Shown here: positions 4,422 to 48,459 of the stretch, piece after piece
Layout: each line of letters starts with the position of its first letter
Position numbering within the stretch: the first letter of the stretch is position 1
UHGV virus genome: UHGV-0277313
Strand: one strand, 5' to 3'
DNA: 64,000 nt
Source: a virus
Made by a program: the position numbers and the translations under genes
The notes under the pieces: generated by a model
Databases searched by the model: none
The model's input: the letters and a program-made list of their open reading frames with translations, nothing else
Told to the model about the DNA's origin: nothing

Positions 4422-5027
4422 ATGGGAAATGAAACATTCAATGGTAAAGTATTACAAGCTTTAGATTTAAAAGCGGATAAAGATTTGTTGAACGTTTCTT
4501 CGGAAACGTTACAAACAAAAGTTGAAGCTACATTGTATATGCTTGAACGTTTACCTAATTCTGAATACAGGTTTGTTCATAGATTAGAAAATCCAAAATT
4601 GTCTTTATACATTGAAGGCAGTGTTATTTATGATTCTGAAACAAAAACAACATATGTTAAAACAATCGACGGTCATGAGAAATTAGTCTATGCATCGCAA
4701 GTTCCAGCAGTTACAGAATATTGGTCAGATGGTGTTGGAAATTGGTATTGTAAATGGAATAATGGTTTGTTAGAACAAGGTGGTGTTGTTGAGGGAAACG
4801 GTAATTTTGGTGCAACAACAATTACAATGAAAAAATCTTTTCTAAATACAAATTATTCTTTAATAGTTACACCAAATTTAGAAAATGAATCAATTTTTAC
4901 TAATACTGATGCAATCGGAACGACAGCTTATCTTGCGGATGTTGCTGGTGTAGTTACAAATAAAACAGTGAATAGTTTTAAAATTTCTTCAAGATCAACG
5001 CATTGTTGGTTCGCTAAAGGATTTTAA
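4422..5027 (+). CDS. hypothetical protein
   Basis: ORF; no motif recognised. Confidence 0.45.
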   Translation: MGNETFNGKVLQALDLKADKDLLNVSSETLQTKVEATLYMLERLPNSEYRFVHRLENPKLSLYIEGSVIYDSETKTTYVKTIDGHEKLVYASQVPAVTEYWSDGVGNWYCKWNNGLLEQGGVVEGNGNFGATTITMKKSFLNTNYSLIVTPNLENESIFTNTDAIGTTAYLADVAGVVTNKTVNSFKISSRSTHCWFAKGF

Positions 5028-5065
5028 AAACTTCACACAAATCAATGAAATTTTAAGAAAAACAC

Positions 5066-5094
5066 TTGCAAAATTTCATCATTTGAGTTAATAT
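5066..5094 (+). promoter_or_regulatory. sigma70-like promoter (TTGCAA-N17-TAATAT) upstream of tnpB
   Basis: The hexamers with a 17-nt spacer are read directly from the sequence. Confidence 0.45.
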
Positions 5095-5123
5095 ATTAAA
5101 TTGAGAAAAGAAGCAAGAGAAAA

Positions 5124-6311
5124 ATGATTCGTAGCTCTGCATTGACGTTAAAATTTGCAACAAGCAAAAAGTTGAACACATTGGATTTGGTGTTCAATGA
5201 ATATGCCCGTGTTGTGAATTTGTATATTGATGCCTTGAATCAAACAAAAGTACTGCCCAAATTTACTAATTTCAAAATGGGTACTTGGCTATCAGCCAGA
5301 TTGCAACAATGCGCTGGCAAACAAGCAACTGAAATTGTGAAATCCACAAGGAAGAAAGACAAAGAGATTCGTTTAAAGAAATACAAGAAAATCTATAAGT
5401 ATTTCTTAAATACACAACGGCAAAAGAAATTTATTGGTAAGAAATTCAGTGAATTAAATCTAAATTACAAAATAAAACCAAGATTTGATGGTAAAACAAT
5501 CAATTTGGATAATAGGTTTTGGTCTTTAAATACATCAACCAACTCATTTGATTATTGGGTTAAACTTGGTTCCATTGGTAATAAAATTGGTTTATTGCTT
5601 CCATTGAAAGAGCATAAACATAACAAGAAATTCAGTAATTGGAAACGAGCTGGTTCTTGCCGTCTGCTGAGAAATAACGGGAAATTTAAGATAGAGTTAA
5701 TTTATGAAAAAGCAACTCCTGTTATTCATAAACCAAATAAAATACTTGCAATAGATGCTGGAATTAATTGCCTGATGTCTTGTTCTGACGGGCGTCAGAT
5801 TGGATTGGAATTAAAGAAACTACTAAATGAACTTAACAAGAAACAACAAAAATCAAAATCATACAATCGCAAATTGAATCAGATACACAACTACGTCCGT
5901 TGGTGTGTCAATCAATTGGATTGGAGTAATCTGTCTGATTTGGTTATTGAAAATCTAAAATATATTCAGATTGGAACAAAACAAAAAGTGAACAAAGCAA
6001 CCCGTAGGTTGCTTTCTAAATGGAATTTGGGTTTATGGCATCGCGCTATAGAACAGAAATGCGAAGCAAACTGTGTTTGTTTGCATTATGTTGAACCTAG
6101 ATACACAAGCCAGACTTGTCCGCGTTGTGGTAACGTGGACAAGGGGAATCGGGATGGTGTGTTGTTTAGATGCACAAGTTGCGGCTATGAAGCCAATGCA
6201 GATTTGAACGCGTCTATCAATATACTGAACCGATTTCGTCAGGAGAGGTTGAATTTATCAGCCGATATAGTCCCTGATATGGCAAAAGCTGATTTCATTG
6301 TTTTTCATTAA
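5124..6311 (+). CDS. tnpB: TnpB (IS200/IS605 OrfB family RuvC-like nuclease)
   Basis: RuvC-I AIDAGIN, RuvC-II VIENL and RuvC-III NADLNASINI motifs are present. A zinc finger CPRCG...CTSCG is also present. No adjacent tnpA. Confidence 0.8.
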   Translation: MIRSSALTLKFATSKKLNTLDLVFNEYARVVNLYIDALNQTKVLPKFTNFKMGTWLSARLQQCAGKQATEIVKSTRKKDKEIRLKKYKKIYKYFLNTQRQKKFIGKKFSELNLNYKIKPRFDGKTINLDNRFWSLNTSTNSFDYWVKLGSIGNKIGLLLPLKEHKHNKKFSNWKRAGSCRLLRNNGKFKIELIYEKATPVIHKPNKILAIDAGINCLMSCSDGRQIGLELKKLLNELNKKQQKSKSYNRKLNQIHNYVRWCVNQLDWSNLSDLVIENLKYIQIGTKQKVNKATRRLLSKWNLGLWHRAIEQKCEANCVCLHYVEPRYTSQTCPRCGNVDKGNRDGVLFRCTSCGYEANADLNASINILNRFRQERLNLSADIVPDMAKADFIVFH

Positions 6312-6330
6312 AATTGGAGACTATAGCGGG

Positions 6331-7284
6331 ATGAATATTTTAGTTACTGGTGCTGCTGGTTTTATTGGTTCACATTTGTTTAATAAGTTGTGCAACAATA
6401 AACATACAGTTGTTGGTATTGATAGTTTTACTGGCGATCTTTCTTTAAAAGATATTAAAGAATCTAGAGTTGATAACTTTTTAAGTAAAAGTGGTTTATT
6501 TAAAAAATGTGATATTTTTGATGAATATCTAAATACATTATTCGAACAATATAAATTTGATGTTGTGATACATTTAGCAGCACATTCAGGAGTTCGTGCT
6601 AGTCTTTTAGCACCTGAAGAGTATTATAGAAATAATGTTTTAGGTACTAATCATTTACTAAATCTGATGGTCAAGCATGATTGTAAAAACATTGTTTTTG
6701 CTTCATCATCATCTGTATATGGAAATTGTAAAGATGTAGAATTTAAAGAAACTGCGGTAGGTTTAAAACCTATATCACCGTATGCAGCAACAAAATTGGC
6801 ATGTGAAGAAATGCTTTTTACATATCATAATTTATATGAAATGAATGTTTCATGTTTACGTTTCTTTACTGTATACGGTCCAGAACAAAGACCAGATTTA
6901 GCAATACATAAATTTACAAATAAAATTCTTAATAAAGAAGTTATCAGTGTATTCGGAGATGGTCATAATGTTCGTGACTATACATATATTGATGACATTG
7001 TGAATGGAATCGTTTCTGCTATAAATTATACAGTCTATAATAAAGACGTTTACGATATATTTAATTTAGGTGGTGGAGAGCCTATTAGCATAACTGAAAT
7101 GATTCGTGTGATTGCTTGTAATTTAGGAGAAATTCCTGAAGTTGTTCATGTGTCAATGCAACCTGGTGATGTTGAAAAAACAGTTAGTAATTGTGATAAA
7201 GCAAAAGAGTTGTTAGGGTATTCCCCTAAAGTATCTTTTAATGATGGTATAAAAGAATTTTTAAAATGGAAGTTAAAACATTGA
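6331..7284 (+). CDS. NAD-dependent sugar epimerase/dehydratase (extended SDR family, GalE-like)
   Basis: N-terminal GAAGFIGSH Rossmann motif and catalytic YAATK (YxxxK). RBS GGAG upstream of MNILVTG. Confidence 0.8.
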   Translation: MNILVTGAAGFIGSHLFNKLCNNKHTVVGIDSFTGDLSLKDIKESRVDNFLSKSGLFKKCDIFDEYLNTLFEQYKFDVVIHLAAHSGVRASLLAPEEYYRNNVLGTNHLLNLMVKHDCKNIVFASSSSVYGNCKDVEFKETAVGLKPISPYAATKLACEEMLFTYHNLYEMNVSCLRFFTVYGPEQRPDLAIHKFTNKILNKEVISVFGDGHNVRDYTYIDDIVNGIVSAINYTVYNKDVYDIFNLGGGEPISITEMIRVIACNLGEIPEVVHVSMQPGDVEKTVSNCDKAKELLGYSPKVSFNDGIKEFLKWKLKH

Positions 7285-8081
7285 ATATTTTGTATTCACT
7301 CGATGATAATTTCATTAATTATACGAAGACATCAATGTTGTCTTTATTAAATAATTCAAAAGAGTTCGTGAATTTTTATTTGTTAACAAATTCAGAAGTT
7401 ATTAGTGAAAAAGATTTTGATGTCTTAAGAAGAGTTCGAGATTGTAACATTAAGTTAGTTTTTGTGCCTGAATCAAAATATAAGTTTTTAGAATCAAGAA
7501 AAATGTTTCAGCATTTAAGTGTGGCAACGTATTTTCGTCATTTTGCATCAGAATTAATAGAAGATGTATCAAAAGCTGTTTATATAGATTCAGATACTTT
7601 AATTGTTAGTGATATAAATAATATACTTAATGAAAATGTTGGAAGTTTTGAGTATGTACGTGGTGTAGAAGATGCCGCATCAGAAAAGAAAATGAAATTG
7701 TGGGATATAAATAGATACATAAATGCAGGTGTTTTGTTAATGAATCTAGATTATGCAAGAAAAGATTTGAATGAGTTTTATGAAAAGATTGCATACTTTT
7801 ATCAAAGATTCGGAAATAAAACAATATCTGGCGATCAGGATATGTTAAATTTTGTATTTAGACCAAAGTATATTCCATTTAGATATAATTTATATCATCC
7901 TTTTTTTAATAAACAGTTTGTACCAGCCAGTTGTTCACAAGATGTTTATTACGAAGAGTGTAAAACACCTGTTGTTATACATTTTGTTGGTAGTAGAAAA
8001 CCGTGGATAAGTGACGTTACTCATCCCTATAAAAGTTTATGGGAAAGTACGTTTAATTTATTGCAACATTTAGATAATTAA
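7266..8081 (+). CDS. family-8 glycosyltransferase (LPS alpha-1,3-galactosyl/glucosyltransferase-like)
   Basis: DxD motif YIDSDTLIV, NAGVLLMNL and HF..SRKPW resemble GT8 (RfaJ/glycogenin fold). Confidence 0.7.
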   Translation: MEVKTLNILYSLDDNFINYTKTSMLSLLNNSKEFVNFYLLTNSEVISEKDFDVLRRVRDCNIKLVFVPESKYKFLESRKMFQHLSVATYFRHFASELIEDVSKAVYIDSDTLIVSDINNILNENVGSFEYVRGVEDAASEKKMKLWDINRYINAGVLLMNLDYARKDLNEFYEKIAYFYQRFGNKTISGDQDMLNFVFRPKYIPFRYNLYHPFFNKQFVPASCSQDVYYEECKTPVVIHFVGSRKPWISDVTHPYKSLWESTFNLLQHLDN

Positions 8082-11488: not shown

Positions 11489-13876
11489 ATGTCTGATCTA
11501 GTTTTTCAAGATTTAATTTCTAAAGATCCTAGCGTTCTTGTATTGTTCGATAAATTTGATTTTGATGATGTGAAAAAATCCAAAGCATTTACATCATCAG
11601 CAGCACGTGGGATTTTAAAGGATATTTATAGTCGCGGTTTTACGAATAATTCCGTCTGTGCGATGTATGTTAAAAATACAGCAGTGTTTGATTTCGATGG
11701 TAATTTAGAAGTATATCGTTTACCAAATGAAAAAGCAAAATCAAAAGGTCAGATTATTGTTAATGAGAAGGATAAAGCCGATTTTAAAAATAGACTTATT
11801 GCGCTATTAATGAGAAACGACTTCAAGTCTTTAATTATTTTAGGGAGAGAAGTTGCGAATGTACTGCAAGAGTTTGGATTTTATGGAGCTGGAAGTTGTT
11901 TAGATACAGCTAAAGAGATTAATTTTGTAGGCAATAAAGTTTTAACAATTGAAACTGTCAGTCCTTTAGAATATTCTTTAGGTTTGACTGAAAGAAATAA
12001 GTTCATTTCAGCAATAGATCAGATTTATTCGACACAGTATGAAGTCACATCTATTGATAATGCAAGTTACGTTGATATTGATACGTTTGCAGGGTATCTT
12101 CGTAAACTTGAAATATTATACGATAATAAAAAGATTGACTGTATGGGTTTTGACTATGAGACGAATTGTTCAGAGTGGTCAGTTCCGTGGGCGAAATTAG
12201 TTGCAGTTTCTTGTTCTGATCGTATTACAAATCACGCTTTTTCGTGTGCGTTGTATCATCCTGAAAAGATTATGCACCCTCGCAAAAAGACTTTGTTAAA
12301 GTGGTTGTTTGCACACATCTTTACAGAAACATTGACAACAAATGAAGAGTATATCAAGCTTGCAAAGAAGTTAGAGCATTTTTATAAAGATGTTTATCCT
12401 AGAATTGAGGAGTTACCGTATAAAGAAGTTCTGAATGACGATGAGTATTTTGTTCTAGAATCTTTGCCTGATTTGGTAAAAGTGTTTAAGAAAGCTGCAA
12501 AAAAGGCTTTTGAAGAAAAGACAAAAGCACATGAAGAATATAAAAAACTTATTTTTGAAGCGGTTAAACGTCTGACGTTTTTAATAAACGATACAGAGTA
12601 TCCGAAAAAGTTGCATGATTTTTATTATTTGCTAGATAAGGTTTTATCAAAAATTCCTGTTGTAGGACACAATATTAAGTTCGATATTGGTTGGTGTGCA
12701 AACATGTGTATTGGTTTGCGTAATTTACGTGTTAAAGCCGATACATTTGGTCAAGCTGTTGCTGTAATGGGGCAAAATTTAGGGACAAAATTAAATCTAG
12801 AATCGTTATCAGTTGACCTTTTAGGTGTTGAGAATAAATGGAAATCAGCATTTCATGCATCACCTCGTTTAGGTAAAGGATCAAAGTTACGTTTTGATCG
12901 TGTTCCTTTAAAGTTGTTAGGACCTTATTCTGCAGCGGATGCTATTACAACAGATTTATTGGATGAATACTTCCAAAAGAAAATGGAAGGTCAACCTATG
13001 AATCTTGTTGAAAAGGAACAAAACATTGCTATTGTCATGTTTTCTTTAGGTGAAGTTCATGGTTTTTCTATACATCCTGAAACAGAAACAAAATTGTATA
13101 AATGGGTTAACAATGGGTTAAGAGATTTACGTAATCAATTAGTTCAGCTTCCGACAGTAAAACGTTTTGTTGAAGATAGAAAGCAAGAGTTGCCTGAAAA
13201 GGAAGCAAGTTTATTTGAATTTAATACAAACACTTCTGGTGCGCAGTCACATAATGCAGCTGTTTTATTCAGGAAAGAATACTTTGGTCTAAAGTCATTA
13301 ACATCAACAGATTCAGGTTATCCTTCTGCTGATGCAGATACTTTAAAAGAGATAAAGAAACAATTGAGTGTTTCAATTAAACAATTTGAAACTGCTAAAT
13401 TAGGTGAAAAAGTTTATTGTGATAATAATGGTGAATTAATTACAAATAAAAATATTGATCGTTTTAAAGAAGCATGTACTTTTTGCGATAACTTGATTAA
13501 AACATCAGGGTTTAGTCAGTTAAACAATATGTATTATAAAGTTTCGTATGATGAGAAAAATGATCGACCTTTAGATAAATTTATTGCAGTATTTAAATTG
13601 GTAGGTGCAACAAAAACAGGACGATTGTCTTCACGTTTTCATTTAGCACCTAAAACAGGCGGCGTGCGATATGTTTATTGTTCAGCGTGGTCAAAAGATA
13701 ATATTCGTAAATATCAGTTTTCGCATGAACCAGGTGTTCGTTATGAACCTTTGTATGGCTTAATGGATGTAGTTTATGAAGACGGTACAACAGAAAAAGT
13801 GTCATACGGTGATTTATTAAATCGTGGTTATACAAAAGACGAAATAGAATCTATTTATAAAGCTAATCAAGTGTAG
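11489..13876 (+). CDS. family-A DNA polymerase, N-terminal half (3'-5' exonuclease plus N-terminal polymerase region ending at the TGRLSS motif)
   Basis: ExoI FDYETN, ExoII VGHNIKFDIGW and ExoIII YSAADAITT are present. The gene ends with KTGRLSSRF...; palm motifs A, B and C are absent. Confidence 0.8.
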   Translation: MSDLVFQDLISKDPSVLVLFDKFDFDDVKKSKAFTSSAARGILKDIYSRGFTNNSVCAMYVKNTAVFDFDGNLEVYRLPNEKAKSKGQIIVNEKDKADFKNRLIALLMRNDFKSLIILGREVANVLQEFGFYGAGSCLDTAKEINFVGNKVLTIETVSPLEYSLGLTERNKFISAIDQIYSTQYEVTSIDNASYVDIDTFAGYLRKLEILYDNKKIDCMGFDYETNCSEWSVPWAKLVAVSCSDRITNHAFSCALYHPEKIMHPRKKTLLKWLFAHIFTETLTTNEEYIKLAKKLEHFYKDVYPRIEELPYKEVLNDDEYFVLESLPDLVKVFKKAAKKAFEEKTKAHEEYKKLIFEAVKRLTFLINDTEYPKKLHDFYYLLDKVLSKIPVVGHNIKFDIGWCANMCIGLRNLRVKADTFGQAVAVMGQNLGTKLNLESLSVDLLGVENKWKSAFHASPRLGKGSKLRFDRVPLKLLGPYSAADAITTDLLDEYFQKKMEGQPMNLVEKEQNIAIVMFSLGEVHGFSIHPETETKLYKWVNNGLRDLRNQLVQLPTVKRFVEDRKQELPEKEASLFEFNTNTSGAQSHNAAVLFRKEYFGLKSLTSTDSGYPSADADTLKEIKKQLSVSIKQFETAKLGEKVYCDNNGELITNKNIDRFKEACTFCDNLIKTSGFSQLNNMYYKVSYDEKNDRPLDKFIAVFKLVGATKTGRLSSRFHLAPKTGGVRYVYCSAWSKDNIRKYQFSHEPGVRYEPLYGLMDVVYEDGTTEKVSYGDLLNRGYTKDEIESIYKANQV

Positions 13877-20069: not shown

Positions 20070-20172
20070 TGGCTTCAAAATCTTTAGTGAATAAGGTGTT
20101 TGGTTTGACGGTTGAAATCATTTTTTAATGAATTCAAAGAATATTTAGTGATAGAATAAGAGTGGGAAAGTT

Positions 20173-20679
20173 ATGATTGTAATTGGTTACCAAGGAATTG
20201 GGAAATCAACATTGGTAAAAGACAGCAATTCTTATATCGATTTTGAAAGCTCCAATTTCAAAATTAATGGGAAACGCCCGGATGGGTGGGAACAGATGTA
20301 TTGCGAAGCGGCGTTGGATTTAAGTCGTCAGGGGCACGTTGTTTTTACGGCATCCCATAAATGCATACGGGATTATTTGAAAGATCGCCAAGGTAGCGAA
20401 GTTGTGCTGATTGTTGCACCGTCCGTAGACTTGAAAGACTTGTGGTTGGAAAAACTTAGAAATCGTTACAAAGAAACTGGTCTTGAAAAAGATAAGTTGG
20501 CTTTGCTCAACGCAGAAGATTGTTTTGGCGAAAACATAAAAGAAATGCAGAATTATGCAAGTGTTTTCCCGTTTTATGAAATCACTGATATGAGCTACAA
20601 ATTGCGTTTTCTGTTTGATAACTTTTTAAAAGACGAAGAAGTCCTTAAAACTTTTGGATTTAAACGTTTACATGTTTAA
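20173..20679 (+). CDS. P-loop kinase-like protein (nucleotide or polynucleotide kinase-like)
   Basis: N-terminal GYQGIGKST Walker A. Locally elevated GC. Confidence 0.55.
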   Translation: MIVIGYQGIGKSTLVKDSNSYIDFESSNFKINGKRPDGWEQMYCEAALDLSRQGHVVFTASHKCIRDYLKDRQGSEVVLIVAPSVDLKDLWLEKLRNRYKETGLEKDKLALLNAEDCFGENIKEMQNYASVFPFYEITDMSYKLRFLFDNFLKDEEVLKTFGFKRLHV

Positions 20680-20789
20680 TCATGATTAATACCGAAGAAA
20701 ATGCAAGTGTAATTATTAATACTTAAAACTCAAAAACAAAATTTCGATTGAGAAAATTTTTAAGTTTCTTTAACAGTTAGGTAAGTAAA

Positions 20790-22784
20790 ATGAAGCAAGT
20801 AATAAAACGCGATGGAAAAGAAGTTAAATTTAATTTGAAAAAGATTGTATCGGCTATTCGTAGGGCTGGAGAGTCTTCTGGTGAATTTGGTTATGACGAA
20901 GCTTTAGATTTAACAAATTCAGTAATTCAAATGTTTGATAATAAAGAAAAAGCAACTGTTGAAGAGATTCAAGATGCTGTTGAAAAAGTGTTGAATGAAA
21001 ATAATTACACAAAGACAGCACGCGCTTTTATTGTGTATCGTGAAAAACATAATGATATGAGAAAAGATAATAATGTAATGATTGATGCTGTTCAGTCAAT
21101 TGATGATTATCTTGATCGTTCAGATTGGCGTGTAAACGCTAACGCAAATCAGGGGTATTCTTTAGGTGGTATGATTCTAAATACTTCTGGTAAAGTAACA
21201 GCAAATTATTGGTTGAGCCATGTGTACCCTAAAGAAGCTGGTGAAGCACATCGTAATGGTGATATACAGATTCACGATTTAGATATGTTAGCAAATTATT
21301 GTACTGGATGGTCATTGCGTGCATTGCTTCAGGAAGGCTTTAACGGTGTTAAAGGTAAAGTTGAAAGTAAACCACCAAAACATTTAGCTTCAGCTTTAGG
21401 ACAAATGGTGAATTTTTGGGGTTGTTTACAGAATGAGAATGCAGGTGCACAGGCATTTAGTAGTTTCGACACATATCTTGCACCTTATGTTCGTAATGAT
21501 AAATTGACATACAAACAGGTTTATGATGCTATTCAGGAATTTGTATTTAATGTGAATGTTCCTTCAAGATGGGGAACACAGACGCCTTTTACGAACATTA
21601 CATTAGATTGGACATGTCCGGAAGATTTGAAGGATTCACAACCTATAATTGCTGGTGAAGAGATGGATTATACATATTCTGAACTTCAACCAGAAATGGA
21701 CATGATTAATAAAGCCTTTATTGAAGTCATGATTAAAGGTGATGCACATGGACGTTTATTTACATTTCCTATTCCGACATATAATATTACACCAGACTTC
21801 CCGTGGGAAAGCGAAAATACAAAGTTGTTGTTCGAAATGACGGCAAAGTATGGGTTGCCGTATTTTCAGAATTTCTTGAATTCAGATTTGAAAGTTGGTG
21901 ATGTTAGAAGTATGTGCTGTCGTCTTCAACTTGACTTGCGTGAAATTAAAAAACGCGGTGGCGGTCTATTTGGTTCAGGGGAACAGACAGGTTCAATTGG
22001 TGTTATAACAATTAACTGTGCGCGTTTAGGGTATCTGTTTAAGAATGATATAACAGGTTTATATAAACGTTTAGATGAATTGATGAATATTGCTAGAAAT
22101 GCATTAGAACAAAAAAGAAAGTCATTAAATAAATGGATGGAGCAAGGTTTGTATCCTTATTCTAAACGTTATTTAGGTGGTTACAACACTTTGTTTTCAA
22201 CGATAGGAATTAATGGTGTAAACGAAATGATTCGTAACTTTACAAACGATGAACATGATATCACAGATGACTATGGACAGAAGTTTGCAATGTCTTTAAT
22301 GGATCATATTAATGAGGTGTTAAAACAATTTCAGGTTGAAACTGGTAATTTATACAACTTGGAGGCTACGCCAGGAGAAGGAACTACTTTTAGGTTTGCG
22401 AAAGAAGATAAAAAACGCTATCCTGAAATTATTCAAGCAGGAAAACCTGAAGCACCTTATTATACAAACTCAACACAGATACCTGTTGGGTATACAAATG
22501 ATCCATTTACTGCATTAAATCTGCAGGAAGGTTTGCAGAGACGCTATAGTGGCGGCACAGTTGTACACCTTTACATGGGAGAAGCAATGTCATCATCAGA
22601 TTCTTGCAAGACTTTAGTGAAGCGTGTTCTGGAGAATTATCACATTCCATATTTAACAATTACACCTACGTTCTCGATTTGTCCTAAGCATGGGTATATC
22701 TCAGGTGAACATAAATATTGTCCTATTTGTGATGAAGAGTTAACTTCACCAAAGCAAGAGCAATGTAAAGCTTGTAAGGGTTAA
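20790..22784 (+). CDS. nrdD: anaerobic ribonucleoside-triphosphate reductase
   Basis: N-terminal ATP cone and a C-terminal Cys cluster CPKHGYISGEHKYCPIC with a glycyl-radical-like GY. Confidence 0.9.
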   Translation: MKQVIKRDGKEVKFNLKKIVSAIRRAGESSGEFGYDEALDLTNSVIQMFDNKEKATVEEIQDAVEKVLNENNYTKTARAFIVYREKHNDMRKDNNVMIDAVQSIDDYLDRSDWRVNANANQGYSLGGMILNTSGKVTANYWLSHVYPKEAGEAHRNGDIQIHDLDMLANYCTGWSLRALLQEGFNGVKGKVESKPPKHLASALGQMVNFWGCLQNENAGAQAFSSFDTYLAPYVRNDKLTYKQVYDAIQEFVFNVNVPSRWGTQTPFTNITLDWTCPEDLKDSQPIIAGEEMDYTYSELQPEMDMINKAFIEVMIKGDAHGRLFTFPIPTYNITPDFPWESENTKLLFEMTAKYGLPYFQNFLNSDLKVGDVRSMCCRLQLDLREIKKRGGGLFGSGEQTGSIGVITINCARLGYLFKNDITGLYKRLDELMNIARNALEQKRKSLNKWMEQGLYPYSKRYLGGYNTLFSTIGINGVNEMIRNFTNDEHDITDDYGQKFAMSLMDHINEVLKQFQVETGNLYNLEATPGEGTTFRFAKEDKKRYPEIIQAGKPEAPYYTNSTQIPVGYTNDPFTALNLQEGLQRRYSGGTVVHLYMGEAMSSSDSCKTLVKRVLENYHIPYLTITPTFSICPKHGYISGEHKYCPICDEELTSPKQEQCKACKG

Positions 22785-29905: not shown

Positions 29906-32281
29906 CTATTCTTCACGTTTACCATAAAAACCGTTGCCGACAAAATACTTGCTTTTGAAATCCATATTTGGGCAAGGATCTTCAAATTCAAGCTTCAGTG
30001 AAATAAGTTGTGTCGGGACTTCAATAGGTAACTCTTCACGTTCTTCTGGAGGGATAGGGTCACCTTCTTTCATCTCAAGTATTTTGTAGTCGTATGCTTC
30101 ATCAAGTTCACGTTTTAAATAATCCCAATTGCAGTTGCCTCCCTTGATATTTAAAATGAATTTACCATCCTTCTCTTCAAAAGATTTAATATCCATTTCA
30201 CGTCCCCATGATTGACCTAAACCAAAATCAATGAACATTTTGTTTCCGTTCATCCAATCATAAATAACATTTGGTACCGTACCTGCATGAAATTGACAAA
30301 TCTTAAAAACTGGAATTAATTCACCTGGGTATATGTCAAGATATGTTGAATCATGAACACCACCAATCATTACTGATTGTAAATCGTGCATCAACATCTC
30401 TTCTGCAATATGTGTACCTGCAATCCATGCCATACGGCTAGCGGATGAATTGTGTACAAAAACACCAGCTTCTAATGCGAAATTGTGTGTATTTTCATTG
30501 TTTTCAACTTCAATATCATATACTGAAATTTTGTTTGGTAGTTTAATTACTTCAACAGATGTAACTTTATGGTTGTTGAATAATTCTGCTACTAAACGTT
30601 CATAATTTTCTTTTGAAAAGTGCGGAACACTTGAAGCTCTAGCTCCTTCATTAATATAAGACAATCTGTATTCTTCAAAAATATTTTCGAAAGAAGAATC
30701 TAGTAATATATTTTTACCAAGTTTTTCAATAATTTTTAAAGAAAGTTTTTTGAACTTATAAAAAGTTGTATTCTTTCCACATTTTCTGATATTATTTTTC
30801 ATATGCTGTATCTTTTCTAGATCATTACCTTTCCAAATTTTATTTATTGTTTTTCTGGCAGATTCAGACAATTGTTCTTTAGACATACAGAATGCATTTC
30901 CATATGTTTCAATGCGTTTTTTTACCAAAGCTTTAACTGCTTCTCTTTGGTTAAAATCCCAATCTTTATAAAGTTCTTTTCTTTTTTTATTTTTTTCAGC
31001 CATTAATTTAGATTGTTTTTCAGAATGTTCTTGTGTTAAAAAATGTTTCCAAATATTGTTTTCACGTTTGCCTTCTCGTATTTCACGTACACGTTTTTGA
31101 GTGTCAATACTACGTTGTTTTGAAGTATATTTCAAACCCATTTGACGTAAATATTCGTGAACAGATACACCTGTCAGGTCAGCATGTCTTTTAATAGTAG
31201 ACATTACAAGAGATGAATGATATTTTATATGTTCTGCCTTATCCATAATAAGTAAATTATCAGGGTTGTTGTTTAATTTGTTGAAATCTTTGTGATGTAC
31301 TGCTTCATTTTTTTCAATAGTACGATCATAATATTTACTTACTATACGATGTACAGAGGCCCAAGGTTTTGTAGTTAAATCATTTCTTTTAACATATTTA
31401 TACCCTAACTTGTCATATTTTGTATAACAAGGCATTAAGCTTTCATTATTTTTTAAATCGATAGCATGTTTATATGTTCCATCCCTTAACATAAACTGGT
31501 GTTCAGGTGTGCATGTAATAATTTCGCCAGAATCTAATGTAACTTTACAAATTGTGTCAGTTTCTCCAGATTTAAAAGCGTTAATAATTTTGCCAGGTAT
31601 AATTTTACCATCATTACAACAAGATAAAACATACTTATTTTCAAAATTATTCACAAGGTTTTGAATTTCAACAACACTGCCATCTAATAAAGGTATTTTA
31701 GTATCACCAACAAAACATTGGATCCCACTATTCTGGCTTGCATTCATAGCATGATTCAACAACTTCCTGTTGCTTTTAGTGTCAGGCAACATTGCATCTG
31801 GTAACGGTCTAGTACAACCAAATACGTCAACAATATATCCATGCTCACGGGCGAACTTGTGTTGATATTCAACGTATGTTTTAATACCAGGGTATGCCCC
31901 CATCATTTTATCAATAGTTTCTTGAGCTTCTTCGACAGTGCATCCCCACTCTTTTGAAAAGTTGTAGGCTGATTTTCCATAGAGTAGACCAAACATTGTT
32001 GACTTCGCCTTTGAACGCAACCCAGAGTGGTGTTCTTTAATTTCTTTATCACTCATGTTTTTTAGTTCAGGAAAAATATTTCTGGCCGTATTACAATGCA
32101 GATCAGCACCTGACAGTAGTACATCTCGAAGTGTTGGATCACAACTAATAGCTGAAAAAATTCGAATTTCCAAAGTACTGTAGTCGTACGAAACTATTAT
32201 ACCACCACCGTTGTGTCTTGTCAAGCTTTTTATTTTCTTTTTTGCAAAATTTTTATTTTTTATTTCCATTTTTCTAGCCAA
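29906..32281 (-). CDS. family-A DNA polymerase, C-terminal half (motifs A, B, C) interrupted by an intein
   Basis: Motif A DYSTLEIRIF, motif B KSTMFGLLYG and motif C VHDS are present. An insertion from Cys189 to ...VHN is followed by SSAS. Confidence 0.8.
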   Translation of the reverse strand: MARKMEIKNKNFAKKKIKSLTRHNGGGIIVSYDYSTLEIRIFSAISCDPTLRDVLLSGADLHCNTARNIFPELKNMSDKEIKEHHSGLRSKAKSTMFGLLYGKSAYNFSKEWGCTVEEAQETIDKMMGAYPGIKTYVEYQHKFAREHGYIVDVFGCTRPLPDAMLPDTKSNRKLLNHAMNASQNSGIQCFVGDTKIPLLDGSVVEIQNLVNNFENKYVLSCCNDGKIIPGKIINAFKSGETDTICKVTLDSGEIITCTPEHQFMLRDGTYKHAIDLKNNESLMPCYTKYDKLGYKYVKRNDLTTKPWASVHRIVSKYYDRTIEKNEAVHHKDFNKLNNNPDNLLIMDKAEHIKYHSSLVMSTIKRHADLTGVSVHEYLRQMGLKYTSKQRSIDTQKRVREIREGKRENNIWKHFLTQEHSEKQSKLMAEKNKKRKELYKDWDFNQREAVKALVKKRIETYGNAFCMSKEQLSESARKTINKIWKGNDLEKIQHMKNNIRKCGKNTTFYKFKKLSLKIIEKLGKNILLDSSFENIFEEYRLSYINEGARASSVPHFSKENYERLVAELFNNHKVTSVEVIKLPNKISVYDIEVENNENTHNFALEAGVFVHNSSASRMAWIAGTHIAEEMLMHDLQSVMIGGVHDSTYLDIYPGELIPVFKICQFHAGTVPNVIYDWMNGNKMFIDFGLGQSWGREMDIKSFEEKDGKFILNIKGGNCNWDYLKRELDEAYDYKILEMKEGDPIPPEEREELPIEVPTQLISLKLEFEDPCPNMDFKSKYFVGNGFYGKREE
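30449..31717 (-). mobile_element. intein with HNH homing-endonuclease domain inside the PolA C-half
   Basis: The insertion starts CFVGDTKIPLLDGS and ends FVHN followed by S. It contains the HNH motif VHHKDFNKLNNNPDNLLIMDKAEHIKYH. Host motif B precedes the insertion and motif C follows it. Confidence 0.65.
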
Positions 32282-38539: not shown

Positions 38540-39040
38540 TTAAATTTTATCTAAAACGTCTTCATAGCTTTTAAAAACAATATCGCTTAGTGCATCTTTT
38601 GCGTTGTAGTATGTTTTGCAATAGTCATGCTCAAAGTCAATTGGTTCATTTATTTGATGTTTGCAAAAATCTTTTGTTTTGGGTTCGTATAGAAGAAAAG
38701 TTGTAGGAAGTCTAACAACTAACATTGGAGGATTTTGTTCAGTTGCACTTTTCCATGCAAAGAATTGTACTATAAATCCTTTGTATTGTTGTTTGATAAA
38801 AGAAGACATTTCATTAAATAAATCATAGTCTGTATCAAAATAAATTGTTGTACTATCAGTGTCTTCAGTAAAGCTTTTGATTGTTTCAAAATTAGCGAAA
38901 TTGTCTTCAAAATTTAGTTCGTTAGTTAAATTGTCTTTAGAAATAGTTAGACAGATAGCTTTACCGTTAATCGCATAGTAGCTAAACAGATAATAGACGT
39001 CATCAAATTTTGATTCATTGCAAACTTTAAAATATTCCAT
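38540..39040 (-). CDS. paralog family protein 1 of 7
   Basis: C-terminal ..YEDVLDKI and shared internal blocks. Confidence 0.55.
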   Translation of the reverse strand: MEYFKVCNESKFDDVYYLFSYYAINGKAICLTISKDNLTNELNFEDNFANFETIKSFTEDTDSTTIYFDTDYDLFNEMSSFIKQQYKGFIVQFFAWKSATEQNPPMLVVRLPTTFLLYEPKTKDFCKHQINEPIDFEHDYCKTYYNAKDALSDIVFKSYEDVLDKI

Positions 39041-39049
39041 AAAAATCCT

Positions 39050-39529
39050 TTAAATTTCATTAAGAACATCTTGATAGCTGAACATTTCAGGTGATTTCAA
39101 TGCATCAGAAACAGTATCATAGTATTCAATGATTTTAAAATTTTCTGTATTCTTTCCAGACCATAGCGGTTTGGCATCAAAATCATTTGCTAATCTATAT
39201 ACTTGAACAGCATCAATGTCAATTATAATTATTGAAGTATGCAACAAACCAATCACAGTGTGTCCGGTATTTTTATCAAGTAATGTGCAAATTACAGGTT
39301 CAATATTATTTTCCTCTAAAGTATCGTCTAAATGTGACAGCATTTCTTTCAAGGAATTGTTGTGAATAATTTTATATTCTTTATTTGGAATTTTAGAAGG
39401 AAATATATATAGACGATTGTCGTCTATATAAAGTGCTTGAACTGTTGTTGTATCTTCTGTTTTATTAAACACTTCTAAAACATAAATAATATTTTTTGAG
39501 AAGATAATATCAAATTGTTTTATTTGCAT
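39050..39529 (-). CDS. paralog family protein 2 of 7
   Basis: C-terminal ..YQDVLNEI. Confidence 0.55.
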   Translation of the reverse strand: MQIKQFDIIFSKNIIYVLEVFNKTEDTTTVQALYIDDNRLYIFPSKIPNKEYKIIHNNSLKEMLSHLDDTLEENNIEPVICTLLDKNTGHTVIGLLHTSIIIIDIDAVQVYRLANDFDAKPLWSGKNTENFKIIEYYDTVSDALKSPEMFSYQDVLNEI

Positions 39530-39541
39530 GTCCTGTTCCTT

Positions 39542-40054
39542 TTAGATTTCGTTTAAAATGTCAATATAATTTTTAAAGATAGGATCTTGAAAGGCGTCTT
39601 CTATGTTTGTATAAAGTTTAACATAATTATTTTCATCTTGTAATTTAGATTCAGCGCTTGTTGAACTTAAGACTTCGAACTTTTTACTGTTTGGTGAATA
39701 AATTAAATATTGGTCATCAATGTTAATTAACAATTTTGGTTTACTGTATGCACTATCACAAAATACAAATACGTCAGAAGTATTAAGCTTGAATATTCTT
39801 TTATACGATTGTTGTATGTCATTCAACATTTCAACATCTGTATCAAAATCTGTTTTGACATAATCGTCCAAATGTTCGTCAGTAAAGTTTTTAATAATCC
39901 AGATGTTAGCATGGTGATAATCACGATTATTTGTTGTAAGAGAGAAGTTTAATGTGTTGTTAACTTCAACACCTTCAATAACATAAAATGTAATGAATGT
40001 GTCAAGTACATCAATAGTTTGTCTTGTTTTTGAATACTTACAATATTTTGTCAT
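39542..40054 (-). CDS. paralog family protein 3 of 7
   Basis: N-terminus MTKYCKYSKTRQT, C-terminus FQDPIFKNYIDILNEI. Confidence 0.6.
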   Translation of the reverse strand: MTKYCKYSKTRQTIDVLDTFITFYVIEGVEVNNTLNFSLTTNNRDYHHANIWIIKNFTDEHLDDYVKTDFDTDVEMLNDIQQSYKRIFKLNTSDVFVFCDSAYSKPKLLINIDDQYLIYSPNSKKFEVLSSTSAESKLQDENNYVKLYTNIEDAFQDPIFKNYIDILNEI

Positions 40055-40080
40055 TGTTATATTCCTATTTAAATTTCGTT
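40017..40080. repeat. 64-bp repeat, copy A (identical to 41567..41630)
   Basis: gtttgtcttgtttttgaatacttacaatattttgtcattgttatattcctatttaaatttcgtt spans the gene start, the intergenic spacer and the neighbouring gene's end. Confidence 0.85.
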
Positions 40081-40584
40081 AAGTACATCAACATAGTTTT
40101 TAAAAATAGGATCGTTGAAAGCTTGCAGAATATCACTGTATTCTCGTATGTAATAATCTTCATTTTGAAGTTTCATGTTTAAAAGATATCGTGACGTAAA
40201 AAAGATTGTTTGTTTTTTAGGTGTATAAACTAAAGAATTGTTTTTATAATTTATAGCAATATTTGGTATACTTTTAAGTGATTCAGCATATACCATAATG
40301 TTGTTTGTATCAATATTATTTGCTTTCTTTATGGAATTTTCAAGATCTTCGAACATTTTGATGTCATTGTCAAAATCAACCTTCTGTAAATTTTCATTTG
40401 GAGTTTTAGGGTCGAAATTAAAACTTTGCGAAATGAGTAAATCATAGTAGTTATCTTTTTTATAATAAGTCAATAAAGTTTGAATTACACTACATTCGTT
40501 GTTCGTTGAAATACAATAATAGCTTTCATACATATCAACAAATTGTAAATGCTCTTCTCGATAATATTTATAAAAATTGCTCAT
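40069..40584 (-). CDS. paralog family protein 4 of 7
   Basis: C-terminal FNDPIFKNYVDVLNEI. Confidence 0.6.
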   Translation of the reverse strand: MSNFYKYYREEHLQFVDMYESYYCISTNNECSVIQTLLTYYKKDNYYDLLISQSFNFDPKTPNENLQKVDFDNDIKMFEDLENSIKKANNIDTNNIMVYAESLKSIPNIAINYKNNSLVYTPKKQTIFFTSRYLLNMKLQNEDYYIREYSDILQAFNDPIFKNYVDVLNEI

Positions 40585-40593
40585 GTCAAACCT

Positions 40594-41100
40594 TTAAATT
40601 TCATCTAAAACATTTATATAACTTAAAAAGATTGGATCTTTAAAAGCATCTGAAATATCACTATATGTCTTAAAATAATCATATTGTTTATTGATTTCTT
40701 CTCGAATGTTGGCAACAAAATCCAAAATGATATTTTTATAAATTGGGGAGTATATCAAAATATCATTTTCAATAGGTATAATGATTTTAGGAGTTTCTTT
40801 CAGATCTGCCATTTGCCAGACATATACTTCATAATTCTTTATTTTATACATATCTGTATATAAACGTTGTATATCTTCAAATAATTCGACATCACTTGAA
40901 AAGTTGATTCTTTTATAATCATTATCTAAACTATTAAGAATTTGTATGTTGCTGCTAGTGTTGACAACATACCCATTAGAACCGTCAACGTATTGTGAAC
41001 ATACAAAAGCAAAACATTGTTTATCAATCACATAAAAATTTCTTACGTGATGTCCGCTTTTATTTGTATTCTCAAAAACATATTTACAAAATTTTGTCAT
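40594..41100 (-). CDS. paralog family protein 5 of 7
   Basis: C-terminal FKDPIFLSYINVLDEI. Confidence 0.6.
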   Translation of the reverse strand: MTKFCKYVFENTNKSGHHVRNFYVIDKQCFAFVCSQYVDGSNGYVVNTSSNIQILNSLDNDYKRINFSSDVELFEDIQRLYTDMYKIKNYEVYVWQMADLKETPKIIIPIENDILIYSPIYKNIILDFVANIREEINKQYDYFKTYSDISDAFKDPIFLSYINVLDEI

Positions 41101-41604
41101 TTAAATCTCGTTTAATACGTCAATGTAATTTGTGAATATTAAATCTTTTAAAGCAGTTTCAACAAAGTTGTATTTTTGATGATAGGCAATCTCATTTTCA
41201 TCAAACCATTGATCAACGACATATCCACTGACAGCATTAACATCGTCTGTTGCAGGTGTATATATAATAGCGTCACTTTGAATGAACATTATAAGTTTAG
41301 GTTTAGAATAGATATCATTGAATTGAATTACTAAATTCTCAACTGTCTTCTTTTCATAAAAGCTTTTATATTGATTTTGTAAATCAGAAAACAACTCTAT
41401 TGCATTATTAAAATCTGTTTTGTTTTTTTCATCTAAAGAGACAATAATTTCATCCGCATTTCCTGAAGTAATATTATATGTAGGAAAGACACGCTCAACA
41501 GAAAATTGTACTAAAATATATTTTTTATTAATAATATAATAGGCTGTATAATGTTTTCCTGTATTTGTTTGTCTTGTTTTTGAATACTTACAATATTTTG
41601 TCAT
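41101..41604 (-). CDS. paralog family protein 6 of 7
   Basis: N-terminus MTKYCKYSKTRQT, C-terminus ..NYIDVLNEI. Confidence 0.6.
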   Translation of the reverse strand: MTKYCKYSKTRQTNTGKHYTAYYIINKKYILVQFSVERVFPTYNITSGNADEIIVSLDEKNKTDFNNAIELFSDLQNQYKSFYEKKTVENLVIQFNDIYSKPKLIMFIQSDAIIYTPATDDVNAVSGYVVDQWFDENEIAYHQKYNFVETALKDLIFTNYIDVLNEI

Positions 41605-41630
41605 TGTTATATTCCTATTTAAATTTCGTT
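41567..41630. repeat. 64-bp repeat, copy B
   Basis: Identical to copy A when read by eye. Confidence 0.85.
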
Positions 41631-42137
41631 TAAAACATCAATGTAATTTATAATAGAAGGGTCTTTGAAAGCTTCAGCAACTGTTTCATAACGTTTCAAA
41701 TATACAGCATCTTCTGTCATAAATTTAGGTATTTTGGTTGCTTTTATACTATTAACAGAATCATTCTCAAATGAATAGTAAAAACTATAATCAGTATCAT
41801 TTATTGCAAATAATATGGCAGGACGCTTGTTAATATCGGTTAAAATAACAAAAATTTGTAAAGGTAAATTTTCGAAATGTTTTTTAAACCCATTGACAAA
41901 GTCTTTAAACAATTCCTCAACATTATCAAACATGATGGTTTTATAATCTAAAAATGAAAGAGGTACATCTAGTGTAGGTGATGTATGTACGTCATATTTT
42001 AAATAATCATCTTTTAAATACTTTGTAAAAACAGATATAAATGCCGTTTTGTTAACTATGTATTTATTATATTCAGATTCTTCTTTAAATCGTGACGAAG
42101 TTGCTTCTTCATAATATTTAAAATATAGATTATTCAT
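41619..42137 (-). CDS. paralog family protein 7 of 7
   Basis: C-terminal FKDPSIINYIDVLNEI. Confidence 0.6.
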   Translation of the reverse strand: MNNLYFKYYEEATSSRFKEESEYNKYIVNKTAFISVFTKYLKDDYLKYDVHTSPTLDVPLSFLDYKTIMFDNVEELFKDFVNGFKKHFENLPLQIFVILTDINKRPAILFAINDTDYSFYYSFENDSVNSIKATKIPKFMTEDAVYLKRYETVAEAFKDPSIINYIDVLNEI

Positions 42138-47224: not shown

Positions 47225-47446
47225 ATGTCTGAAGATGATATCAATAATTTTTTTGTAAATTATATTAATGAAAATGGATCAAATGAAACAACAAGTTACC
47301 CTAAAAGTGTTTGTGGTAATATTATTTGTCCTAAATGTCATCATGATACAGGTTATCCGATGGTAACATGTGAAGTTGTTTATGCAGATAAACATTGTCC
47401 ATTTTGTGGAAATGTCGTTGTACATGCTATGAATATCATGTGTTGA
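47225..47446 (+). CDS. small zinc-ribbon protein
   Basis: CPKCHHD...CPFCG. Confidence 0.5.
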   Translation: MSEDDINNFFVNYINENGSNETTSYPKSVCGNIICPKCHHDTGYPMVTCEVVYADKHCPFCGNVVVHAMNIMC

Positions 47447-47453
47447 GGATTTA

Positions 47454-47834
47454 ATGGAATATAGTTATTTGCTTTGTGAAGTAGGTACTCAAGATAGAGT
47501 TATATTTTTTAAGACTTCAAGAAAGTTCAGAAAAACAAATGTCGTAACTACAGTAAACGAGTTTATGGATTTATGTGAATTGGAATTACAACAAAATAAT
47601 GTAATAAAAGTTCATGGGTACTATACAAAAAGAACACATGTTATTCATTATTATATAGACAACACAACTGTTTATACTGAAAGATCTTTGACTGTTACAG
47701 TTGGCTGGAAAACTTTACGTGATAAGTTTAAAAGAAGATTTGGATGTGATGTAGAGATACTTCATAAAAAATATTGTTCGTACATAATTGTCCAAAATGC
47801 TAGTATTGGAAGTAATCTATTGAAAGATATTTAA
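47454..47834 (+). CDS. hypothetical protein, tandem paralog A
   Basis: About 65% identical to 47852..48235. Confidence 0.55.
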   Translation: MEYSYLLCEVGTQDRVIFFKTSRKFRKTNVVTTVNEFMDLCELELQQNNVIKVHGYYTKRTHVIHYYIDNTTVYTERSLTVTVGWKTLRDKFKRRFGCDVEILHKKYCSYIIVQNASIGSNLLKDI

Positions 47835-47851
47835 ATAGTGTTGAGGTTTTA

Positions 47852-48235
47852 ATGGAATATTGTTTTTTGTTTGGTGAAGTAAGAGGAACTCAAGATAAAT
47901 TTATGTTTTTTAAATCTTCATGTAAGTTTAAAGAAACAAATATTGCCAACACAGTAAACGAGTTTATGAATTTATGTGAACTGGCATTGCAACAGAATAA
48001 TGTAATAAAAATTTATGGACATTATACAAAAAAGTCACATGTTACTCATTTTTATGCAGAAAGCACAACTATTTATACAGAAAAACCTCAACATGTCTAT
48101 GTTGGTTGGAAAGTTTTACGGGATAAGTTTAAAAGAAGGTTCGGGAGAGATGTAGAAATACTTCATGAAAAATATTATGGATCAATCATTGTTAAAAATA
48201 CTAATATTGGAAGTAATTTATTAAAAGATATTTAA
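47852..48235 (+). CDS. hypothetical protein, tandem paralog B
   Basis: Shares NVIK(V/I)(H/Y)G(Y/H)YTK and WK.LRDKFKRRFG blocks with paralog A. Confidence 0.55.
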   Translation: MEYCFLFGEVRGTQDKFMFFKSSCKFKETNIANTVNEFMNLCELALQQNNVIKIYGHYTKKSHVTHFYAESTTIYTEKPQHVYVGWKVLRDKFKRRFGRDVEILHEKYYGSIIVKNTNIGSNLLKDI

Positions 48236-48240
48236 ATAGC

Positions 48241-48459
48241 GTGGAGACTTTAATGAACGATTATGATGTTAAAGAGAAGTTGTTGTTGATATTGATTCTA
48301 ATTATTATCATCGCATTGCCTGCCTCGTGCAGTTATGATATAGGTAAAATTGAAGGTAAAGCTGAAACGGTCCAAGAACTGTGTTCAAAAACTGAATACG
48401 ATTTCTGTGTAAAAGTACAACAGAAACCTATATATACTCTTAAAAATGATATTGACTAA
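48241..48459 (+). CDS. small membrane/secreted protein
   Basis: Hydrophobic LLLILILIIIIALPASC segment. Confidence 0.4.
   Translation: METLMNDYDVKEKLLLILILIIIIALPASCSYDIGKIEGKAETVQELCSKTEYDFCVKVQQKPIYTLKNDID

Follow-up and report, generated by a model that had tools for sequence, protein, structure and literature searches.

The stretch analysed here, 64,000 nt of the virus genome UHGV-0277313 (below, the window), carries between two phage genes a tnpB gene, which encodes a nuclease of the RNA-guided TnpB family. The question raised by this locus is whether such a gene, with no transposase gene beside it, belongs to a mobile element, is a nuclease kept by the phage for its own use or is the remainder of an old insertion. 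We conclude, with a probability of about 0.85, that positions 5021–6324 are an insertion sequence (IS) of the IS607 lineage that lacks the transposase gene tnpA, has an intact tnpB and a scaffold of ~216 nt for the guide RNA (omega RNA, ωRNA), has been mobile recently and resides in a large gut phage. As a recently mobile IS it is ordinary and of a type already known, and it reveals no new kind of system. The parts of the element, with positions counted from the first letter of the window, are as follows.

5021..6324, + strand: whole insertion sequence, 1,304 bp, a non-autonomous IS607-family element; limits from blastn and empty alleles.
5021..5123, + strand: left end and 5′ leader; begins AT/TTTAAAAAC, holds AATGAAAT at 5044–5051; kept among copies at different sites.
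5124..6311, + strand: tnpB, ATG to TAA, 395 amino acids (aa); RuvC residues D211/E276/D360, zinc-finger residues C332/C335/C350/C353.
6109..6324, + strand: predicted ωRNA scaffold overlapping the 3′ end of tnpB, from RNAalifold and pair counts; helices 6109–6112/6280–6283, 6115–6127/6131–6143, 6145–6152/6230–6237 and 6238–6246/6271–6278, hairpin 6247–6252/6258–6263.
6292..6324, + strand: right end, ATTTCATTGTTTTTCATTAAAATTGGAGACTAT; two TTTCATT motifs, terminal bases CTAT.
6325..6344, + strand: predicted guide template, AGCGGGATGAATATTTTAGT, which includes the epimerase start codon (6331–6333).

In blastn comparisons with copies located elsewhere, similarity starts at 5018–5021 and ends at 6324. 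Neighbourhoods of relatives were read within ±10 kb of exact protein matches. Copies with the same ends occur at nine different sites in related gut phage contigs of ~170–310 kb; their flanks are unrelated, and the neighbours at the other insertion sites are nrdD, Band_7, HD and further genes. At a distance of ~124 kb from the window copy, the same 276,920-bp contig has a second one, 76% identical in its protein; similarity between these two copies starts ~105 nt before the ATG, at ATTTTAAAAAC, and ends 13 nt past the stop codon, at ...GGnnACTAT. Elsewhere, copies without tnpA are 1,295–1,311 bp long and copies bearing tnpA 1,864–1,888 bp. Searches of IMG/VR with peptide patterns gave no match to the element, a 15-mer DNA pattern gave chance matches only (none with TnpB), and a longer DNA pattern detected one locus each in IMG/VR, JGI and GTDB. 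One 50-kb GTDB contig (JAKSVT010000017.1, locus L144) that begins with the right end of the element comes from a horse-faeces metagenome-assembled genome labelled Alphaproteobacteria; this is probably phage DNA that was sorted into a bacterial assembly.

The left flank together with the first two bases of the element reads N-GTAT at seven of the nine sites, ATAT at one and GGAT in the window. The right end is CTAT across sites, but CTAC in locus L139; AT both follows the left flank and closes the right end at eight of nine sites (AC at the right end of L139). The target GTAT and the right end CTAT thus have their final bases in common, which would be expected of a crossover dinucleotide. Both TTTCATT motifs of the right end are inverted relative to AATGAAA of the left end, and the repeat scan reported an imperfect inverted repeat between 5039–5064 and 6292–6315; these motifs are plausible candidates for binding sites of the recombinase TnpA. 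A reading made earlier from the letters alone (below, the sequence-only reading) had proposed to look for IS605-like hairpins at the left and right ends and for a target tetranucleotide. The tetranucleotide was found, as GTAT; as for the hairpins, only a short imperfect subterminal inverted repeat joins the two ends in the general repeat scan, and no search aimed at IS605-style hairpins was made.

Evidence of recent movement comes from phages in which the same site is empty. The genes on both sides of the element are the following.

4422..5027, + strand: upstream phage gene with a weak match to a tail-fibre gp53-like C-terminus.
6331..7284, + strand: gene of an NAD-dependent nucleotide-sugar epimerase, downstream of tnpB; ATG at 6331–6333.

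The gap between the tnpB stop codon and the epimerase ATG is 19 nt, practically the 20 nt given before, and the epimerase gene is followed by a GT8 glycosyltransferase gene. Among the contigs read after a look-up of the exact epimerase protein, the site was filled in 13 and empty in 9. In six phage contigs with an identical epimerase protein the empty site has the form ...AAAGGTAT/AGCGG...; the empty alleles read ...GCTAAAGGTAT/AGCGGTATGA..., with AAAGG(T)AT joined directly to AGCGG, and the filled allele reads ...GCTAAAGG-AT, then the element from TTTAAAAAC to GGAGACTAT, then AGCGGGATGA.... Flanks of filled and empty alleles are 98.4–99.4% identical, so the insertion polymorphism is recent and the insertion is young. 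The suggestion that the element was recently inserted is thus borne out by phages with the empty site and by copies at other sites. For the other insertions, no empty sites were present among the loci read.

Relatives that still carry tnpA determine the family. Those with 72–89% TnpB identity have an overlapping gene of an IS607-type serine recombinase. In L139 (TnpB 89% identical) the gene overlapping the tnpB start encodes a MerR-like helix-turn-helix and a resolvase domain (AIYARVSS) and is frameshifted; the repaired product scores 183.5 bits with the NCBIfam model ‘IS607 family transposase’ (transpos_IS607, cut-off 110). Intact gene pairs are present in the pig gut locus L146 (tnpA of 189 aa, tnpB of 395 aa) and in L147 (190 and 397 aa); L147 and an empty epimerase site (L013) belong to one and the same phage contig of 225,258 bp. 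Since the autonomous relatives carry an IS607-type serine-recombinase tnpA, the family is IS607-like and not IS605/IS1341. A tblastn search with the IS607 TnpA of a relative gave no match within the window, in agreement with the sequence-only reading, which had described a solo TnpB without tnpA in a phage gene row; the window copy is a non-autonomous IS607 derivative that lost tnpA, not a full IS607 member.

Of the two autonomous copies, the one in L146 is flanked (1–336 and 2204–2327) by DNA with a noticeably higher GC content than that of the phage; bacterial genomes, perhaps that of the host, may also harbour the autonomous element. The full IS607 site of L147 corresponds in the window to a replaced segment, 20091–20725 (against 3688–6132 in L147), rather than to a simple empty site, though the two phages are otherwise 97–98% identical there. 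The segment holds a 168-aa open reading frame (ORF) in the window, and two tiny ORFs, the full IS607 (tnpA and tnpB, 1,888 bp) and a 148-aa ORF in L147.

The tnpB product matches Pfam Cas12f1-like_TNB (PF07282; 4.7e-19, 68.7 bits against a cut-off of 26.3) and the PHROG 506 ‘transposase’ family (1.9e-29); its scores with NCBIfam IS607_TnpB and IS200_TnpB are far under their cut-offs. The best sequence matches in the PDB are to Cas12f, TnpB and CasPhi and cover only the C-terminal RuvC/zinc-finger part. Searched as DNA against INPHARED phages, the region gave no match; the best TnpB from a phage is only 34% identical. An AlphaFold2 model from a shallow alignment (22 close homologues) has a mean predicted local distance difference test score of 40.3.

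Candidate catalytic residues are found in the motifs AIDAG (D211), VIENL (E276) and NADLN (D360), and a CxxC...CxxC zinc finger (TNB domain) sits between RuvC-II and RuvC-III. Among 35 cluster representatives with 29–58% identity, no substitution occurs at D211, E276, C332, C335, C350 or C353, and conservation of D360 is at least 90%; in the 22 close homologues the whole triad and the four zinc cysteines are invariant. A HMMER local alignment places the RuvC-II Glu of Cas12f opposite G284, not E276; E276 was taken as catalytic because it is invariant and located in the usual h-h-h-E-x-L motif. By its sequence the protein has a split RuvC with a D-E-D triad, and the earlier statement that RuvC-I, -II and -III and the zinc finger are intact holds. 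Nine copies other than that of the window were translated, and each has an intact tnpB frame. The ratio of nonsynonymous to synonymous substitution rates (dN/dS) is 0.07–0.17 in comparisons with seven copies at other sites and the L146 copy; at the codon level, purifying selection on tnpB is shown. As far as the sequence tells, this is a real, intact TnpB RNA-guided nuclease, and we infer that it is active. A nuclease-dead TnpB-like repressor (TldR) was considered and ruled out, as triad and zinc finger are intact; a CRISPR-associated reading (type V, Cas12f/CasPhi) was also ruled out, as no repeat array was found in the window.

We aligned the last ~230 nt of 12 copies, predicted a multi-helix structure with RNAalifold and counted 43 pairs. 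With the predicted partners 96.9% of the cells are paired, 14 pairs are changed on both sides and the covariation score is 0.345; with the 3′ partners slid by 1–3 columns the corresponding values are 36–44%, 2–4 pairs and 0.03–0.08. The hairpin 6247–6252/6258–6263 has seven different stem sequences among the copies. In the long-range helix 6109–6112/6280–6283, GCCA/TGGC is replaced by GCAG/CTGC, and the encoded amino acids change along with it. Folded by itself, the sequence from the window also takes this structure (−81.6 kcal/mol, z = −5.65). The synonymous rate dS is in most comparisons 2–3 times lower in the last 100 tnpB codons than in the rest of the gene, the reduction being only 1.2–1.9-fold for B/L002, L139, L146 and L012. 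The tail, 6284–6324, is unpaired in the RNA model yet almost invariant. This conserved 3′ structure is most likely the ωRNA scaffold, and the expectation that a structured RNA would overlap the 3′ end of tnpB is supported by the compensatory changes in 14 pairs. A covariance model of the last 101 positions, used with filters off to scan the window, found the element itself only and no orphan right ends.

Similarity between copies stops exactly after ACTAT, and the guide template would therefore begin at 6325 (AGCGGGATGAAT...). By analogy, the guide may be ~16–20 nt long; from the junctions, GTAT is the presumed transposon/target-adjacent motif (TAM). The predicted guide template matches nowhere else in the window. 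The sequence-only reading had the guide run into the ribosome-binding site of the epimerase gene: a guide from 6325 would indeed reach the epimerase start and cover its ATG, while the Shine–Dalgarno-like GGAG (6317–6320) belongs to the element, not to the guide. A 12/13 complementarity between a site inside tnpB, 6039–6051 (CATCGCGCTATAG), and the junction of right end and guide, 6321–6333 (CTATAGCGGGATG), is probably due to chance.

In the leader, the string TTGCAA (5066)-N17-TAATAT (5089–5094) had been taken for a sigma70-like promoter of the gene itself. The string is present at 5066–5094, and CTTGCAAAATTTCAT is conserved where the element sits elsewhere, even in copies still carrying tnpA. 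The match of the string to the sigma-70 consensus is only 8/12, it was not listed by the promoter scan, and promoter-like matches occur in this AT-rich region at chance level (17 found, 15.4 expected). The claim thus stands as to the string and its conservation and falls short as to the match; the left end may act as a promoter. After CTTGCAAAATTTCAT, tnpA-less copies at four readable sites (A, B, L005 and L141) have one common leader sequence, which suggests that a single tnpA-less derivative has itself spread.

The mechanism that we propose follows by analogy the characterised TnpBs of IS607 and IS605 elements. TnpA acting in trans would have inserted the element at GTAT, with AT as the crossover dinucleotide, and a promoter in the element's own left end would drive its transcription. 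TnpB would bind the scaffold, with ~16–20 nt past 6324 serving as the guide, and the complex would cut GTAT-AGCGGGATGAATATTT DNA, that is, the empty allele. Its own locus would be spared, as the same sequence is preceded there by CTAT; the discriminating base would be G versus C at −4. A cut made during replication or co-infection could be repaired from a filled genome, so that the element would be retained and spread (transposon homing).

Several observations count against this picture of an IS607-derived, guide-carrying element. The left junction in the window is GGAT, not GTAT, and the empty site reads GGT-AT-AGCGG, with one T more. The TnpB scores 99.3 bits with the NCBIfam model guided_TnpB, 0.7 bit short of the cut-off of 100. 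None of the 120 best TnpA relatives could be tied to the 313,355-bp contig, the longest one carrying this TnpB. The scaffold has no Rfam family either at the gathering threshold or at E-values up to 10, RAGATH-18 and the group I intron included. Both the TAM and the guide length rest on the junctions. Finally, position 6 of the predicted guide is mismatched in all six empty alleles (T versus G), so that the empty sites sampled may resist cleavage; +6 would fall in the guide seed. With respect to the first point, a T was lost at the window site, or else the insertion there was not fully conservative. Empty alleles and the outgroup allele (L152) keep GGT at the left junction, and because the outgroup does so the loss is assigned to the filled lineage.

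The seed mismatch is also the starting point of a bolder proposal, which we offer tentatively and hold less probable than its contrary. According to it, the tnpA-less unit of TnpB and ωRNA serves, in this group of large gut phages, as a homing endonuclease with an RNA guide: when phages co-infect, it would cut empty alleles (GTAT followed by the flank), and recombination would copy it into them. The empty alleles that persist would be those carrying the mismatch in the guide seed (T for G, position 6) and nearby changes. Differences between filled and empty alleles near the junction are at −9, +6, +24 and +27, with +30 in three of the five empty alleles compared; other flank differences are mostly hundreds of bases off, and two empty alleles also differ at −21/−107 and −207 to −230. 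The outgroup L152 (83% epimerase identity) polarises these single-nucleotide differences inconsistently: −9 is derived in the filled allele, +27 in the empty allele, and the rest are uninformative. An arms-race interpretation therefore stays speculative; if the homing proposal is true, the locus would have recorded, in nature, an arms race of a selfish RNA-guided nuclease with the phages that it targets.

Filled alleles also differ among themselves. Between L011 and L012/L014 the differences fall in patches, at element positions 168–273, 666–691 and 1226–1242, and identity is 97.1–97.8% within the element while the flanks are 99.5–99.9% identical. The patchy pattern suggests gene conversion or exchange between element copies.

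Could the unit have been domesticated instead? In that case TnpB and its RNA would be kept for the benefit of the phage, for example by destroying co-infecting relatives without insertion or cutting host DNA, and would no longer be mobile. The absence of tnpA from the window and the strong purifying selection on tnpB agree with such a role, as does the local excess of substitutions between filled and empty alleles described above. So do the fits to the flanking genes at this particular site. In phages with the empty site, the upstream gene is 203 aa long and its stop codon overlaps the epimerase ATG (ATGA). The insertion altered the end of the upstream protein, which is ...AKGIAV in these phages and ...AKGF in the window; without the lost T the protein would gain 12 residues instead of ending in ...AKGF. 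The original AAAGG ribosome-binding site of the epimerase gene was displaced by 1.3 kb, and the GGAG mentioned above sits 10 nt before the epimerase ATG; it is part of GGAGAC, found only in copies at the window site, where other copies have GGTAAC. The lost T, which gives the upstream protein a near-native end, and the change of GGTAAC to GGAGAC, both confined to copies at this site, look like accommodation to the host genes. Against domestication stand the presence of the unit, with the same ends, at nine sites whose unrelated flanks imply unrelated guides, its occurrence in only about half of near-identical phages and the circulation of autonomous copies in the same clade; selfish homing accounts for the selection on tnpB with no benefit to the phage. 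Being polymorphic in the population and present at many sites, the unit is unlikely to be the domesticated phage nuclease that had been suggested earlier as one of two possibilities.

Even less probable is a relic left by an old insertion, in which neither the protein nor the RNA is still active. The missing tnpA, the loss of GTAT at the left junction and the guide mismatch of the sampled empty sites could be read in this way, but the frame is intact in every translated copy, the dN/dS values are low, catalytic and zinc residues are invariant among close homologues, RNA helices are kept via compensatory changes, and the polymorphism among phages with nearly identical flanks makes the insertion young. 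The other possibility raised by the sequence-only reading, an IS1341-type element, would be a solo TnpB of the IS200/IS605 type that a Y1 HUH transposase mobilises on single-stranded DNA. It is the least credible of all, for it has on its side a solo tnpB with a 3′ structured RNA and a weak Pfam OrfB_IS605 match (21 bits, under the cut-off), and against it the tnpA of the relatives, which encodes an IS607 serine recombinase and not a Y1 enzyme, the short subterminal inverted motifs found at the ends by the general repeat scan in place of IS605-style hairpins, and the last bases common to GTAT and CTAT, as for a crossover dinucleotide.

We thus return to a recently mobile IS607 derivative and to the replicon in which it resides. 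The window is phage DNA, with genes of SbcCD, NrdD, DNA polymerase and HNH proteins; an identical TnpB was found on metagenomic contigs of up to 313 kb, and the host replicon is a large lytic-type gut phage of ~280–310 kb. The DNA polymerase seems to be split between two genes on opposite strands, 16 kb apart: the gene at 11489–13876 (+) matches positions 715–979 of the PHROG 17 profile and a 3′–5′ exonuclease domain, and the gene at 29906–32281 (−) matches positions 1004–1150 with its N-terminus and has an HNH endonuclease domain at aa 286–500. A free-standing HNH endonuclease gene at 62089–63363 (+; PHROG 1314, 1.6e-56) is another likely selfish element. The nrdD gene (20790–22784) is intein-free in the window, while the 98%-identical relative in L147 has an intein of ~980 nt (Intein_splicing, LAGLIDADG) at 6981–7961, corresponding to 21574/21576 of the window. 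Seven tandem paralogous ORFs of 159–172 aa make a row at 38540–42137 (−); one was tested and had no PHROG match. At 47440–48255, a 401-nt tandem duplication with 80% identity corresponds to ORFs 47454–47834 and 47852–48235.

The closest known systems are TnpB/ωRNA elements of the IS607 family: the Clostridium botulinum IStron (Žedaveinytė et al., bioRxiv 10.1101/2023.11.20.567912) and RAGATH-18-guided elements such as ISFba1 (Cell Res 2024, PMC11061315). They have in common with the element described here autonomous relatives in which a serine-recombinase tnpA overlaps tnpB and is often frameshifted or lost, a guide RNA scaffold at the right end and a TnpB of ~390 aa. In the IStron, the target and TAM is TGGG and the right end TCGG; GG is the common crossover dinucleotide, and one position separates self from non-self. 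Here too the target, as the presumed TAM, is one base off the right end (GTAT/CTAT), with AT, not GG, as the proposed crossover dinucleotide. In contrast to the IStron and ISFba1, the element matches neither a group I intron nor RAGATH-18 in Rfam. Its scaffold lies within the tnpB coding region and not in a downstream spacer, its host replicon is a large lytic-type gut phage, and this copy is without tnpA.

Like ISDra2 and other IS605-family TnpBs (Karvelis et al.), the protein is an RNA-guided RuvC nuclease, by prediction, of ~400 aa, with an ωRNA that overlaps the 3′ end of tnpB and a guide from the right flank; the role proposed in both cases is cutting of the empty donor joint. In ISDra2, however, the partner is a Y1 HUH transposase and the ends are hairpins, and ISDra2 TnpB was absent from the PDB sequence matches of the present TnpB. 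The best sequence matches with solved structures are Cas12f and CasPhi (Cas12j; CasPhi comes from huge phages), in the RuvC/zinc-finger part; unlike them, the protein is encoded in an IS with defined ends and with no CRISPR array in the window, and it is shorter than CasPhi.

The resemblance to free-standing homing endonucleases of T4-like phages (Seg/Mob; reviewed in PMC13565253) is one of lifestyle: a selfish nuclease gene between conserved phage genes, patchy among relatives and expected to spread during co-infection. The differences are in transposon ends, copies at unrelated sites and target recognition, which would depend on an RNA guide and a short motif instead of a protein. Repair-driven retention and spread has been named ‘transposon non-restorative homing’ in a 2026 review, and TnpB elements without tnpA, the self/non-self logic of IS607 and homing into co-infecting phages are already in the literature. 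To these the locus adds a clean natural case of an IS607-derived TnpB/ωRNA unit in large lytic-type phages, complete with matched filled and empty alleles, another copy elsewhere in the genome and autonomous relatives from the same group of phages; this material permits a direct test of transposon homing between co-infecting phages, as well as of the TAM (predicted GTAT) and the guide of a compact 395-aa nuclease.

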